Below, piece after piece: positions 10,061 to 17,621 of a stretch of 19,762 bases of DNA. Made by a program: the position numbers and the translations under genes. The notes beneath the pieces are model-generated. The model saw only the letters and a program-made list of their open reading frames with translations, ran no database searches and was not told the origin of the DNA. The stretch comes from a virus: UHGV virus genome UHGV-0072739; one strand, given 5' to 3'. Position 1 is the first letter of the stretch, and the number at the start of each line of letters is the position of its first letter.

Positions 10061-10229
10061 CCCATCTCAATCCATTCAATACCAGAAAGAAAGCGTCGAG
10101 CGAGCTTTAACGTGCGCTAACTGCGGTCAGAAGCTGCATGTGCTGGAAGTTCACGTGTTCTCCGATTGCTGCGCAGAACTGATGAGCGATCCGAATAGCT
10201 CAATGTACGAGGAAGAAGACGATGAATGA
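10053..10229 (+). CDS. ninF: NinF
   Basis: Hand-translated 58-aa [61 protein letters not shown]; AGGAGG SD; matches lambda NinF. Confidence 0.8.
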
Positions 10230-10944
10230 GTTAATAAATGGCAATGCCATCAAAATGACAAGCATTGAAATCGCTGAGTTGGTGGGAAGTCGTCCAGATA
10301 ACGTAAAAATATCAATAGAGCGCCTGGCTAAATCTGGAGTTATTCAACTTCCTGCATTGCAGGTTTTCGAAAAAATCAATAACTTAGGACTGCGACGTAG
10401 TGTCGAGGCTTACGTCTTCGAAGGCGAACAAGGTAAGCGCGACAGCATTATTGTCGTCGCTCAGTTGTCGCCGGAATTCACCGCTCGTCTTGTTGACCGT
10501 TGGCGAGAGCTTGAAGAAGCTGCGGTTAATATCCCCAAAACGCTACCAGAAGCGTTGCGCCTTGCTGCTGATCTTGCTGAGCAGAAAATGCAACTGGAAA
10601 ACCAGCTCGCAATTGCCGCACCTAAAGTTGAGTTTGCCGATCGCGTTGGCGAGGCCAGCGGAATTTTGATTGGAAACTTTGCAAAGGTTGTTGGAATTGG
10701 TCCAAACAAACTGTTTGCGTGGATGCGCGATCACAAAATCCTTATTGCTTCAGGTTCCCGGCGCAATGTGCCAATGCAGGAATATATGGATCGCGGCTAT
10801 TTCACAGTGAAAGAAACAGCGGTCAACACAAATCACGGAATACAGATATCGTTCACCACAAAAATCACCGGGCGTGGTCAACAGTGGCTGACCAGAAAGC
10901 TGCTCGATAACGGAATGCTGAAAGTAACCGGGGAGGCTGCTTAA
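10222..10944 (+). CDS. Phage antirepressor (Rha-like N-terminal domain, KilA-C/Ant C-terminal domain)
   Basis: 240 aa; N-terminal SIEIAELVGSRPDNV typical of Rha-family regulators; C-terminal KVEFADRVGEASGILIGNFAKVVGIGPNKLFAWMRDHKIL typical of the antirepressor C-terminal domain. Confidence 0.8.
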   Translation: MNELINGNAIKMTSIEIAELVGSRPDNVKISIERLAKSGVIQLPALQVFEKINNLGLRRSVEAYVFEGEQGKRDSIIVVAQLSPEFTARLVDRWRELEEAAVNIPKTLPEALRLAADLAEQKMQLENQLAIAAPKVEFADRVGEASGILIGNFAKVVGIGPNKLFAWMRDHKILIASGSRRNVPMQEYMDRGYFTVKETAVNTNHGIQISFTTKITGRGQQWLTRKLLDNGMLKVTGEAA

Positions 10945-12840: not shown

Positions 12841-13155
12841 CCAGAAAAACATGACCTTTTAGCCGCCATTCTCGCGGCAAAGGAACAAGGCATCGGGGCA
12901 ATCCTTGCGTTTGCAATGGCGTACCTTCGCGGCAGATATAATGGCGGTGCGTTTACAAAAACAGTAATCGACGCAACGATGTGCGCCATTATCGCCTGGT
13001 TCATTCGTGACCTTCTCGACTTCGCCGGACTAAGTAGCAATCTCGCTTATATAACGAGCGTGTTCATCGGCTACATCGGTACTGACTCGATTGGTTCGCT
13101 TATCAAACGCTTCGCTGCTAAAAAAGCCGGAGTAGAAGATGGTGGAAATCAATAA
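12832..13155 (+). CDS. S: Holin S (class I, dual start)
   Basis: 107 aa [39 protein letters not shown]..., matching lambda S. Confidence 0.95.
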
Positions 13156-13615
13156 TCAACGTAAGGCGTTCCTCGATATGCTGGCATGGTCAGAAGGAAC
13201 GGATAACGGGCGACAACCGACACGTAACCACGGTTATGATGTTATTGTTGGTGGCGAACTGTTCACTGATTACTCCGATCACCCTCGCAAACTTGTCACG
13301 CTAAACCCAAAACTCAAATCAACAGCCGCCGGACGTTACCAGCTTCTTTCACGCTGGTGGGATGCTTACCGTAAACAGCTTGGCCTGAAAGATTTTTCTC
13401 CAGAAAGCCAGGACGCTGTAGCTCTGCAGCAGATTAAAGAGCGTGGTGCTTTACCGATGATTGACCGCGGCAGTATTCGTCAGGCAATCGACCGTTGCAG
13501 CAATATCTGGGCGTCGTTACCTGGTGCAGGTTACGGTCAGTATGAACATAAAATCGGTGACCTGATTGCCCGATTTAAAAAAGCTGGTGGGGTAGTAAAT
13601 GAAGCTGAGATATAA
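13139..13615 (+). CDS. R: Endolysin R (lytic transglycosylase, lambda type)
   Basis: 158 aa [26 protein letters not shown]..., matching lambda R; start overlaps the end of S. Confidence 0.95.
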
Positions 13616-13991
13616 GCTGGTTATTGTTGCCTTCGTTGTTACCGTCATTGGTTCCTTCATCTGGTCTGCTGGGCATTACTACAGCAAATATCAGCACGAA
13701 AAGGAGCGTGCTGATGAGGCTGTACGAAATGCTGAATCAGCAACTGCCATTACCCGTAACGTTCTGCAATCACTGCAAATCATCAATACAGTTATAGAGG
13801 CTAACCAGCATGCAAAAGAGCAGATCGCACTGGACGCATCGGGAGCCTCGGCTGATATCCGGGTTGCTGTTGCGAATGATGATTGCACTAATCGCCATGT
13901 CCCTGCTGGCGCAGTTAAGCGGCTGCAACAATTCGCGAACGGTCTACGTCAAAGTGCCGGTAGTCCCGTTACCGGCCAGCCTGACGGCTGA
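13599..13991 (+). CDS. Rz-like inner-membrane spanin (i-spanin), not lambda type
   Basis: 130 aa; N-terminal transmembrane helix (LVIVAFVVTVIGSFIW) followed by a charged helical region; GGTGGGG SD; start overlaps the end of R. Confidence 0.7.
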   Translation: MKLRYKLVIVAFVVTVIGSFIWSAGHYYSKYQHEKERADEAVRNAESATAITRNVLQSLQIINTVIEANQHAKEQIALDASGASADIRVAVANDDCTNRHVPAGAVKRLQQFANGLRQSAGSPVTGQPDG

Positions 13992-14133
13992 CACCCCGCA
14001 ACCGGAAATCCCTGACAACCTGACGTGGGGCCAGAGCCTAGATTTAAACGTCAGTCTCCTATCAGCGCTTGGGCAGTGCAACCGGGATAAGGCAGATATT
14101 AGGCAAGCTGTAAAGAAACAAGCGGGCCAATAA
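13876..14133 (+). CDS. Rz1-like outer-membrane lipoprotein spanin (o-spanin), overlapping the 3' end of Rz in another frame
   Basis: Internal start of track ORF 13810..14133 at MMIALIAMSLLAQLSGC (signal peptide plus lipobox LSGC); Pro-rich mature region. Confidence 0.6.
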   Translation: MMIALIAMSLLAQLSGCNNSRTVYVKVPVVPLPASLTADTPQPEIPDNLTWGQSLDLNVSLLSALGQCNRDKADIRQAVKKQAGQ

Positions 14134-14160
14134 GCCCGCACTTATGGAGGATTCAAAATG

Positions 14161-14721
14161 TTACAGAACCCACCACCTGATCGAATCTGTGGGTATGGTT
14201 GCAGCCTCGACATTCTGGATCATACCCAACTCGGTGGCCCTTCCCGGATCAATGATGGTTGCAGAAGTGATCAAATTAGCCCAGTCAATTTGCTCATCTG
14301 GGGCTACAGCGAGAGCCTCGATATTCATCACCTGCACAAATCTTTGCAAGTCGTCATCCAGACATGCCGCCCATTCCCTAAGCCTGAGGTGATCTGCTTG
14401 TGGGGCGGCAAATCCCCAATGTAAAGGATGTAATAAAAATCGCGAGAGAGGATTAGCAAACCGCTCAGATCCAGCCATGAAAATAACATTTGCTATAGAT
14501 TCCACGTTACTAAGGTTATGTGTCTTCACCTTTACAGGAAGAGACTTAAGAAAGTTGTATGCGGTAAAACCTGCAACGGTATCTCCACCTTTACTAGAGA
14601 TGTAAATCCTGATCTCAGAGGCTGGTTGGTTAGGGCTTGATATCGCTTTGAGGCAAACATCCATAAGGCTGGATACAGAAGCAACTGTCACATCTGTCAT
14701 GAAGTGTACGGTATGGATCAT
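14161..14721 (-). CDS. ClpP-like serine peptidase homolog (S14/ClpP-crotonase fold), antisense moron gene
   Basis: 186 aa; IRIYISSKGGDTVAGFTAYNFL...NLSNVESIANVIFMAGSERFANPLSRFLLHPL aligns with the ClpP core, with the active-site Ser and His positions conserved and the Asp uncertain; opposite strand to the flanking late genes. Confidence 0.65.
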   Translation of the reverse strand: MIHTVHFMTDVTVASVSSLMDVCLKAISSPNQPASEIRIYISSKGGDTVAGFTAYNFLKSLPVKVKTHNLSNVESIANVIFMAGSERFANPLSRFLLHPLHWGFAAPQADHLRLREWAACLDDDLQRFVQVMNIEALAVAPDEQIDWANLITSATIIDPGRATELGMIQNVEAATIPTDSIRWWVL

Positions 14722-15183
14722 TTAAGTTTCCCAGAGATATGCCGCAATTGGCATTTTCATAATGCACATAAAGTGAAAGGTTTTCTGCGTAAACCCGGAT
14801 GAAATTATTTCATGAAGTAAGGCATTACAGAAGCCCTTCATTGAGGGGCTTCGATAATGAAACCGGAATTTATTCTGGGTAACCAGTTACGGCAGTACAG
14901 CGAAACAACCCAAGCCAGTAAGTGGGGAAATAACACTGGCAGCCACTGAAAGATGAACCTCCTGCCTTATGGCAAAAAAGATTCTTTGTGGTGGCGGACT
15001 GATGGAAAGACATCGGTTATTGCAGAGACCATTCAATGAGTGGTCTCGACAATGGCTTATACCCTACACGGGATAACTTAACTGATATCCCCACAAGCGG
15101 ATAAAGAGATTCTCAATGTCAGGAATCTACTTTTAGTCCTAGTAATGATGAACTAGATATCAGCTGAGTCGCTTGGGTGGTGA

Positions 15184-15420
15184 TTACGATTCTGCTTCAA
15201 ACTCAGAAATTAGTTGATGAACACGTTCAGTATATGATGGGTTAGAACCTAGAAACTCTTCCACTGTCTGAATGGTTTCATCACCCTCCCATTCAAAATG
15301 GCTCACAGGTGACGAATGACCAGCCCTGACTTGGTAGGAGCCATTGTCCAATTTGTCCAGGAATATATAAGTTTCATTATCATGACCTGTATTTCGGTAA
15401 AAAATTTGCTTTGAGTTCAT
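15184..15420 (-). CDS. Hypothetical small acidic protein (78 aa)
   Basis: ORF track; AGGA 8-9 nt upstream; its start lies 24 bp from the divergent terminase small-subunit start; no family recognised. Confidence 0.5.
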   Translation of the reverse strand: MNSKQIFYRNTGHDNETYIFLDKLDNGSYQVRAGHSSPVSHFEWEGDETIQTVEEFLGSNPSYTERVHQLISEFEAES

Positions 15421-15444
15421 TAAAGAAATCCTCTAGAGAAAACT

Positions 15445-15996
15445 ATGGCACTCACCGACAAACAAGAGATGTTCTGTCGCGAGTACCTCATCGATTTAAA
15501 CGCCACACAAGCGGCTATTCGGGCGGGGTACAGCGCAAAGACAGCTAACCGTACCGCATCCGAAAACATGTCAAAACCTGACATCCAATTCAGAATCGCC
15601 GAACTGAAAGCGCAACGCAATGATCTTGTTGGTATTAATGCAGAATATGTGCTTAATCGCCTTATTGAAATCGACCAGATGGATGTGCTCGACATTCTCC
15701 TGCAAAACGGTGAGTTAAAGCCCATTAAAGACTGGCCTAAGGTATGGCGCACAACGTTATCAGGAATGGATGTTGTGGAGATGGTATCCGCAGATAGTGC
15801 TGCTCTCCTGAAGAAAATCAAATGGCCTGATAAGGTTAAAAACCTTGAGTTGCTCGGGCGTCATGTTTCTGTTCAGGCGTTTAAAGACAACGTCAAAAAT
15901 GAAGTGACTGGTGCTGACGGAGGACCAGTCAGAACAGAAATTACCAACTTAACGCCGGAGCAGGCTGCAGAGGCGTATAGAAAAATGATGGGCTAA
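15445..15996 (+). CDS. Terminase small subunit (Terminase_2 / P27 family)
   Basis: 183 aa; N-terminal [32 protein letters not shown] is the signature of this family; followed by the large subunit. Confidence 0.85.
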
Positions 15997-15998
15997 GT

Positions 15999-17621
15999 AT
16001 GCCGTTACCATTCCCCTTCGATTTTAAACATCCTGATTACCAGATGGTTTTTGAATGGCGGATGGAACGCTTACAGCGCATTCGCCAGAACCCTGAAATA
16101 TTGCCAGCACTAAAACAGTTTTACCGAACCAACCCGGCTCAGTTCATCATCGACTGGGGCATGACAACGGACCCGCGTAATATTGATTATGGCCTGCCGG
16201 TGACCATTCCGTTTTTACTCTTCCCTAAGCAGGAGGAGTGGATCCACTGGATTATGGAACGCTGGGGTAATCGGGAGAATGGTATTACCGAAAAATCCCG
16301 TGAAATGGGGCTCAGTTGGACCGCGATCGGACTGGCCTGCTCGCTTTGTCTCTTCAACAAAGAAATGGTTATCGGTTTCGGCTCCCGTAAAGAGGAATAC
16401 GTCGACAGCACCGGTGACCCGAAAGCATTGTTCTGGAAGGCGCGCAAGTTCGTGGAAACACTACCTGTAGAGTTTCGCGGTTCGTGGAGCGAGAAGAAGC
16501 ACGCGCCATATATGCGTGTTGAGTTTCCTGAAACTGGTGCCGTTATCAAAGGCGAGGCTGGCGATAATATTGGTCGTGGTGACCGTACCACGCTTTATCT
16601 GGTTGATGAGGCTGCATTCCTTCAGCGTCCTCTGCTGATTGATGCGGCGTTGTCACAAACGACGCGTTGCCGTATCGACCTGAGTTCGGTTAACGGCATG
16701 GCGAACCCGTTCGCGCAGAAGCGTCACGGCGGGAAGATACCGGTATTCACATTCCACTGGCGGGATGATCCTCGCAAGGATGAAGAGTGGTATCGCAGGG
16801 AATGCGAGAAAATCGATAATCCGGTGGTGGTGGCACAGGAACTTGATCTGAACTACAGCGCATCAGCGGAAGGCGTCCTGATTCCATCCGAATGGGTACA
16901 GGCTGCCGTTGATGCGCATATCAAACTGGGTATCCAGCCAACAGGCAAACGACTTGGCGCGATGGATGTCGCTGATGAAGGCAGGGACAAAAATGCCTTT
17001 TCCACCCGTCATGGCTTCCTCCTGGAAAATGTGCGGGAATGGTCTGGTGTGGGTAGCGACATTTATCAGTCCGTCGAGAAGGTCTTCGGTTTTTGCGAAC
17101 AGGACAACCTCGAAGAGTTTCGCTTTGACGAGGACGGGCTGGGCGCTGGCGTTCGCGGCGATGCACGCGCTATCAACGAACTGCGTAACGCTGCGCGCCG
17201 ACCGTCAATACTCGCCACACCGTTTCGAGGTAGTGGCGCGGTATTTGATCCGGACGACGAAGCGGTGCGCGGTGACAACGGACAGGCCGCCCGCCTGAAC
17301 AAGGACTTCTTCGCTAACGCCAAAGCCCAGAGCTGGTGGCGGTTACGTAAACTTTTTCAGAATACCTGGCGCGCCGTGGTTGAAGGTATGGATTACAACC
17401 CGGACGAAATCATCTCAATCAGCAGTAGCATGGCACTCAAAGATAAACTCATCATCGAGCTTTCGCAGCCGACCTATTCCATTAATGGTGTGGGGAAAAT
17501 CGTTATTGATAAACAGCCTGATGGAACCCGGTCGCCAAACCTTGCCGACTCGGTGATGATCAGCTACGCGCCAATGAATTCAGCCCTGAATATCTGGGAG
17601 CTGCTAGGGAGACAGGCCTGA
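15999..17621 (+). CDS. Terminase large subunit
   Basis: 540 aa; ATPase Walker B-like [11 protein letters not shown]-terminal nuclease domain; lies between the small subunit and the portal, with start and stop codons overlapping its neighbours. Confidence 0.9.

Follow-up and report, generated by a model that had tools for sequence, protein, structure and literature searches.

A truncated ClpP-type peptidase subunit carried as single-gene cargo by enterobacterial prophages

The minus-strand ORF at positions 14161-14721 of the 19,762-nt stretch of viral DNA that we analysed (called the window) was confirmed to encode an N-terminally truncated ClpP-type peptidase subunit, and comparison with other prophages supports its classification as a single-gene cargo cassette (moron). 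In our estimate, it is about an even bet that this cargo provides an accessory ClpP serine peptidase subunit of the type of ClpP1 from Pseudomonas plecoglossicida (PpClpP1), which would be expressed in the lysogen and work through the ClpP of the host. The kind of protein, an accessory truncated ClpP, is known. What is new is its context, i.e. a single-gene prophage cargo, co-transcribed with the repressor gene mnt in many phages, in hosts that presumably have a single ClpP.

The gene is common. Its mnt-linked form is present in 149 of 5426 complete E. coli genomes, and the protein of the window belongs to a cluster labelled Klebsiella pneumoniae complex, with 206 member sequences. Public automatic annotation uniformly names these proteins 'ATP-dependent Clp protease proteolytic subunit' or 'head maturation protease', and both labels, that of an ordinary Clp subunit and that of a head maturation protease, are misleading. 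The original prediction had described a ClpP-like moron without a described function. This holds for the phage-borne form, as we found no paper describing a ClpP-type moron in enterobacterial prophages, but not for the family as a whole, since a chromosomal relative, PpClpP1, with 33% identity, has been characterised (PMC12900304).

Fold, active site and truncation

The coding sequence under study is as follows.

14161..14721, minus strand: ClpP-like CDS, 186 aa, with its ATG at 14719-14721 and its TAA at 14161-14163

The product had been predicted to match the ClpP core along its length, and profile and structural searches agree on this. The Pfam model CLP_protease (PF00574) matched residues 31-111 with 46.5 bits against a cut-off of 20.2 (E=4.9e-12), and the PDB entry 9UXT ('Clp protease') matched residues 3-185, i.e. 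the full length, with E=2.3e-30. A Foldseek search with an AF2 monomer model of the 186-aa protein (pLDDT 87.7) returned 9uxt_A as the best match, with TM-scores of 0.86/0.88, followed by canonical ClpPs with TM-scores of about 0.7. Only generic phage ClpP-like proteins, with identities of 26% or less, were found in a BFVD fold search. The dN/dS values are about 0.07-0.17 relative to homologues at 78-98% identity; hence, this is not a chance ORF. As purifying selection acts strongly on the minus-strand frame, the plus-strand ORFs 14144-14392 and 14158-14424 were discarded as antisense artefacts.

The alignment that we built included, besides the protein itself, E. coli K-12 ClpP, PpClpP1 and two genuine prohead proteases; E. 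coli residues are numbered as in the mature chain. Ser75 aligns with the catalytic Ser97 of E. coli ClpP and His98 with His122. As had been proposed, both are conserved: none of 21 family members (48-100% identity) deviates at either position, and among the best 135 representatives of the wider family in a profile search, the Ser is present in 133 and the His in 132. The catalytic triad is nevertheless incomplete, as Ala154 stands where E. coli ClpP has the catalytic Asp171. PpClpP1 has a Pro there, and the same 135 representatives mostly have G, A, S, P, R or E at this position. An exhaustive profile search yielded 55 cluster representatives at E<=1e-30 and 1811 at E<=1e-10, and named members of this wider family include proteins of Pseudomonas, Castellaniella and a thaumarchaeal MAG. 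By sequence, these proteins form a distinct, widespread subfamily of short ClpPs with a Ser-His pair and a predicted active site devoid of the canonical Asp.

The absence of the N-terminal axial region, also predicted, was borne out by the alignment. The chain begins at the first core beta-strand, and 40 residues of the E. coli precursor (26 of the mature protein) have no counterpart; the 26 N-terminal residues of mature E. coli ClpP form the axial loops and the gate. This truncation is general, with a median of five residues before the column of the first core strand in the 135 representatives versus 40 in the E. coli precursor. The residues Y60, Y62, F82, I90, M92, F112 and L114 of E. coli ClpP are those that we take to form the hydrophobic pocket for the IGF/LGF loops of ClpX/ClpA. 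The corresponding positions in the ClpP-like protein are R38, Y40, S60, H68, L70, F88 and N90, of which four are polar (changes Y60R, F82S, I90H and L114N relative to E. coli), and the position of F82 is occupied by S, A or G in nearly all relatives. At the C-terminus, the alignment showed a conserved WWV motif and no extension like those of prohead proteases. The NCBIfam equivalog model of canonical ClpP (TIGR00493) scored 26.1 bits against a cut-off of 308.6. This score, together with the missing Asp and gate and the partly polar docking pocket, rules out a canonical ATP-dependent ClpP.

The cassette and its place in the prophage

The window holds the right half of a lambdoid prophage, whose early region is 96-98% identical to those of mEp235 and HK022. 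Its genes are, in order, SSB, a Rad52-type recombinase, cI (S24 repressor), CII, O-like, DnaB, NinB and a methylase, then Ant-like, YbcO, RusA, Q, holin, lysozyme and Rz/Rz1, and finally TerS, a 540-aa ORF at the TerL position, the portal gene and a Mu-F-like gene. The features around the ClpP-like gene are listed below.

13139-13615, plus strand: gene at the lysozyme position, 158 aa
13599-14133, plus strand: Rz/Rz1, with the end of Rz1 at 14133
14112..14139, minus strand: intrinsic terminator of the ClpP-like gene (terminator scan), with a 7-bp GC-rich stem at 14122-14139 followed by TTGTTTCTTT
14722..14813, minus strand: cassette-specific 5' region of the ClpP-like gene, 92 nt, containing a weak SD (GGGA)
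14722-14724, within the 5' region: in-frame TAA abutting the ATG
14799-14813, within the 5' region: 15-bp palindrome ATGAAATAATTTCAT
14804-14812, overlapping the palindrome: candidate extended -10 promoter TGaAATAAT, from our own lenient scan
14823..14859, strand unspecified: hairpin I1 at the upstream cassette junction (-18.3 kcal/mol, z -3.8)
15445-17621, plus strand: TerS/TerL, with the start of TerS at 15445
15999-17621, plus strand: gene at the large-terminase position, 540 aa

The genes at the lysozyme (158 aa) and TerL (540 aa) positions had no Pfam match at E<=0.01, and their role labels thus come only from position and annotated homologues. The ClpP-like gene is antisense to both of its neighbours, Rz/Rz1 and TerS/TerL, as the original prediction had stated. 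No Clp ATPase was found among the proteins of the window, where the only AAA-type protein is the DnaB helicase; this agrees with the claim that no ClpX/ClpA partner is encoded nearby. The tRNA scan found none, and the Rfam search of positions 13900-15600 gave no match.

The terminator folds on the minus strand with -14.7 kcal/mol (z -3.1). Its hairpin overlaps the stop codon of Rz1 and is devoid of a U-tail on the plus strand; therefore, late transcripts should read through it, antisense to the ClpP-like gene. On the other side of the gene, a scan for strict sigma-70 consensus promoters found none upstream. The extended -10 candidate is conserved in close copies of the cassette and, judging from its sequence, is a putative promoter. 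The M(I/L)HT start and the SD are conserved across the family, and in the mnt-linked group, the ATGA overlap with mnt fixes the start. The TAA that precedes the ATG in the window is replaced by GAA in other copies. The in-frame TAA and the conserved start together rule out the longer versions that begin further upstream (199 aa in RefSeq for ECCTRSRTH03 and 238 aa in the Klebsiella cluster), and the real product is therefore of 186 aa, starting with the ATG at 14721. Public annotations over-extend the start of the gene (locus L003, 6062-6661; protein P0001).

The cassette recurs in the E. coli prophage ECCTRSRTH03, in which the CDS is 100% identical. The 110 nt upstream of the CDS, which include the 5' region, also match, except for the TAA/GAA difference and one base of the palindrome. 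In ECCTRSRTH03, the cassette sits after Rz1 and before a lambda-type terminase, gpW, the portal gene and the prophage's own S49 head protease gene, and the packaging genes and terminase differ from those of the window. In mEp235, the same slot contains a KilA-N gene and gp60 on the late strand, and homology to the window resumes only at 14814, upstream of the cassette-specific 5' region. The gene has its own terminator, and the content of its slot is replaced between related phages, as for other morons; both the moron position and the preference for cargo over a head protease had been anticipated. The GC content of the cassette is slightly lower, at 42-46% versus 48-55%. An identical cassette occurs in 7 of the 5426 complete E. 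coli genomes.

The segment around hairpin I1 is common to the cassette copy of ECCTRSRTH03 and to the intergenic region of mEp234/mEp235, and the hairpin may be a boundary or a terminator-like element that insulates the cassette from the upstream antisense ORF. It has a look-alike at 15019-15053. Both hairpins have the flanks AUUnUCGA...UCUGnAAU and the loop CUCAWUGAA; compensatory changes distinguish their 7-bp stems, and neither has an Rfam match. They lie inside a non-coding segment of 290 nt (14814-15105), which shares 90-94% identity with the intergenic stretch before the HNH gene in the HK97-like phages mEp234/mEp235. Directly upstream of TerS and antisense to it, a 78-aa ORF (15184-15420, minus strand, i.e. 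that of the ClpP-like gene) is present only in the closest copies of the cassette (loci L006 and L024). It has no match in Pfam, PHROG or PADLOC and may be a second small moron.

Relatives in other prophages

We analysed 80 IMG/VR viral loci encoding relatives with 53-100% identity, using simple gene calling and BLAST labels. In the largest subgroup, which comprises 43 of the 80 loci, the ClpP-like gene lies directly downstream of an Arc/Mnt-type gene, identified as mnt by the Pfam models Arc and Repressor_Mnt, and it is translationally coupled to this lysogeny repressor gene, with a 0-nt ATGA overlap. These mnt-linked copies face arc and ant within modules of the immI type. P22-like phages, e.g. 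phiv205-1, carry them, and in PhiR12, they are inserted among lambda-type tail genes. As in the window, the gene is convergent with the lysis cassette in 21 of the 80 loci. Three relatives are antisense beside the tape-measure gene, two have the lysis genes on their upstream side and the remaining 13 are elsewhere. Genomes added two further settings: a Chromobacterium prophage of the myovirus type has a relative flanked by tail-fibre and lysis genes, and a lambdoid prophage of Proteus carries one in antisense orientation, with N on one side and erf/ssb on the other.

When only genes of at least 100 aa are considered, the closest neighbours on either side are both on the opposite strand in 57 of 79 loci, and no Clp ATPase was found beside the relatives whose surroundings were examined. 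The family thus occupies at least five cargo slots, rather than being found only as head-maturation proteases: in many enterobacterial prophages, it has hopped from one such slot to another, and purifying selection on it is strong.

Some of these prophages have further small genes nearby. In the subgroup at 78% identity, a 182-aa gene (phrog_5483) devoid of Pfam and PADLOC matches is located 79 nt upstream on the same strand (locus L011, 5374-5922; also L012-L017), and it may be a co-transcribed second cargo gene there. We considered the possibility of a conserved partner gene and rejected it, as the 78-aa ORF is present only in the closest copies and the phrog_5483 gene only in the 78% group; the cassette is therefore a single gene. 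In some prophages, a YafO-type toxin gene (Pfam YafO_toxin, E=4e-21; locus L047, 6586-7002) is convergent after the pair formed by mnt and the ClpP-like gene, and this slot thus accumulates several cargo genes.

A proposed accessory subunit and rival roles

The full-length structural match, 9UXT, is PpClpP1, characterised in 2026 (PMC12900304). This protein is N-terminally truncated, has a Ser-His-Pro active site and forms a homotetradecamer with a pore of 42.7 A. Its peptidase activity is about 13-fold below that of the canonical ClpP2, its Ser and His are essential and it can do without the third residue. No binding of ClpX was seen for PpClpP1, but with canonical ClpP2, it forms a heterotetradecamer of higher activity, whether ClpX is present or not (all from PMC12900304). 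The phage protein, with 33% identity, has in common with it full-length homology, the fold, the N-terminal truncation, a Ser-His pair with a non-acidic third residue (Pro in PpClpP1, Ala in the phage protein), a length of ~183 aa and the absence of an adjacent Clp ATPase.

The two genes differ in their settings. PpClpP1 is encoded by a syntenic chromosomal gene, in a host whose canonical ClpP gene is in the clpX operon, whereas the ClpP-like gene is mobile prophage cargo. The flanks of the PpClpP1 gene are conserved in 58-64 of 66 Pseudomonas loci, and their synteny across the P. putida group rules out a prophage gene. PpClpP1 is thus a P. putida core gene, and the gene of the window belongs to a mobile, phage-borne branch of the same subfamily. 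Given the 33% identity and the chromosomal, non-phage nature of this core gene, the biochemistry of PpClpP1 may not transfer to the phage protein. In the P. putida group, some 80 species (loci L084-L163) have the PpClpP1 gene in a syntenic position, which the source paper does not discuss. According to naive ORF calling and by-eye labels, its neighbours code for a phospholipase-D-like protein, a small membrane protein and a glycine-rich stress-type protein.

If the phage protein is indeed an accessory subunit, it would be produced in the lysogen, and late transcription running antisense to its gene would shut it off in the lytic phase. We infer lysogen expression from the coupling of 43 relatives to the repressor gene mnt through the ATGA overlap. 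By analogy with PpClpP1, the protein would assemble into a gate-less tetradecamer of low activity without ClpX/ClpA docking of its own, and it would stack or mix with the single ClpP of the host, giving rise to hetero-tetradecamers. These could alter the rate or the cleavage pattern of ClpXP/ClpAP proteolysis, and the host would in effect gain a two-ClpP system. The selected benefit would probably be control of the regulators that choose between lysogeny and the lytic cycle, or hostility towards those superinfecting phages that have Clp substrates among their replication or regulatory proteins. The biological role may therefore be lysogeny control or exclusion. In the fullest version of this scheme, which we put forward as a tentative possibility, the phage would express its subunit together with lysogeny repressors; assembled with the ClpP of the host, the subunit would retune ClpXP/ClpAP and thereby stabilise lysogeny or destroy key proteins of superinfecting phages.

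The concept is similar to that of cellular accessory ClpP paralogues (P. aeruginosa ClpP2, PMC13056064; the ClpP1P2 systems of Listeria, Mycobacterium, Streptomyces and Chlamydia), in which a second subunit without its own ATPase docking acts through hetero-tetradecamers with the canonical subunit. P. aeruginosa ClpP2 tunes ClpXP assembly in a rheostat role (PMC13056064). In contrast with the phage protein, these paralogues are cellular, of about 200 aa, and none is phage-borne; their similarity to it is about 30 bits, i.e. the general ClpP level.

The main rival to the accessory-subunit reading is an autonomous peptidase acting as an exclusion or abortive-infection effector. Such a gate-less enzyme, independent of ATP and of host ClpP, would protect the lysogen by degrading proteins of superinfecting phages that are unfolded or have just been ejected or synthesised or, once triggered, host proteins. 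Without a gate, unfolded chains should be able to enter independently of an ATPase, to judge from ClpP mutants with N-terminal deletions and from ClpP opened by ADEP. The invariance of the catalytic Ser and His in the 21 members fits this reading, as does the organisation as a single gene with its own terminator. The slots are also known for exclusion or defence cargo, i.e. after mnt, where P22 has sieA (PMC8022706, PMC2629481), and upstream of the packaging module, a site of Tai defence genes (PMC11364771). However, the characterised relative PpClpP1 is weakly active alone (PMC12900304), and the cassette has no sensor or partner gene. Moreover, the defence models of PADLOC-DB v2 matched none of the family members tested (the window protein, three relatives and PpClpP1), and we found no paper on such an effector. 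We consider this explanation rather unlikely. Less probable still is a poison subunit that would co-assemble with host ClpP and lower ClpXP/ClpAP output, stabilising phage or host proteins that Clp removes; rings unable to dock the ATPase would leave only singly capped or uncapped complexes. The loss of the docking pocket and of the axial loops points in this direction, as do the lack of ClpX binding by PpClpP1 (PMC12900304) and the P. aeruginosa ClpP1P2 heteropeptidases (PaClpP1P2), which are ClpX-capped on one side only and were proposed to 'tamp down' degradation (PMC13056064). The complex of P. plecoglossicida ClpP1P2 with ClpX (PpClpP1P2-ClpX) is nevertheless more active than ClpP2-ClpX, not less (PMC12900304), and the strict conservation of Ser and His suggests that catalysis itself is selected, which argues against a poison.

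The role suggested by part of the public annotation, that of the head-maturation (prohead) protease of the phage, is effectively refuted, and we consider it very improbable. The best PHROG match is phrog_94 'head maturation protease' (E=5.7e-22), the NCBIfam model Clp_rel_HeadMat (NF045542) also matches (E=1.1e-12), one GenBank record so labels a 57% homologue, and, like the S14 prohead proteases (PHROG 94; NF045542), with which it shares 26-34% identity, the protein is phage-encoded and has a ClpP fold without axial loops. However, the NF045542 score of 48.2 bits is well below the cut-off of 120. Genuine ClpP-type prohead proteases are encoded on the late strand between the portal and major capsid genes and have C-terminal extensions, whereas the ClpP-like gene has neither this position nor the extension: it is antisense, outside the head module, and followed by its own terminator. 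The identical cassette furthermore co-exists with an S49 head protease in ECCTRSRTH03, and P22-like phages have relatives of the gene in their immI regions. These phages recycle their scaffold and are not known to need a prohead protease. The last explanation, a decaying and functionless remnant, would account for the in-frame TAA directly 5' of the ATG, where other copies have GAA, and for the lack of a strong promoter upstream in the sigma-70 scan. Nevertheless, the dN/dS values and the complete identity of the CDS in the unrelated background of ECCTRSRTH03 make it hardly credible, and the family-wide conservation of the start and SD places the TAA outside the real gene.

ClpXP and ClpAP control many bacterial regulators and classic phage proteins such as lambda O. 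Under the accessory-subunit reading, a prophage with its own ClpP subunit could reprogram this control in the lysogen, and the ClpP-like gene family may let a prophage retune the main protein-degradation machine of its host. If so, a mobile prophage gene would hand a second ClpP to enterobacteria with a single one, and the protein would be the first phage-encoded ClpP rheostat, adding a new class to lysogenic conversion or defence. This can be put to the test directly, as a structure and assays are already available for the closest relative, PpClpP1.

The gene also resembles other morons in its genomic logic. We take lambda bor, located after Rz, to be a lysogen-expressed single-gene moron in a comparable slot. 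The lysogen-expressed morons known from the same slots, P22 sieA beside mnt and the phi80-type Tai genes upstream of packaging (PMC11364771), similarly are small independent units embedded in, or antisense to, a late operon and vary between related phages. Their proteins are unrelated to the ClpP-like protein, however, and none is a ClpP-fold peptidase.

Finally, the prophage of the window codes for an Ant-type antirepressor in its nin region (10222-10944, plus strand; phrog_63, E=7e-97). In view of the mnt linkage in other prophages, this antirepressor could matter if circuits of this kind are a target of the ClpP-like protein.
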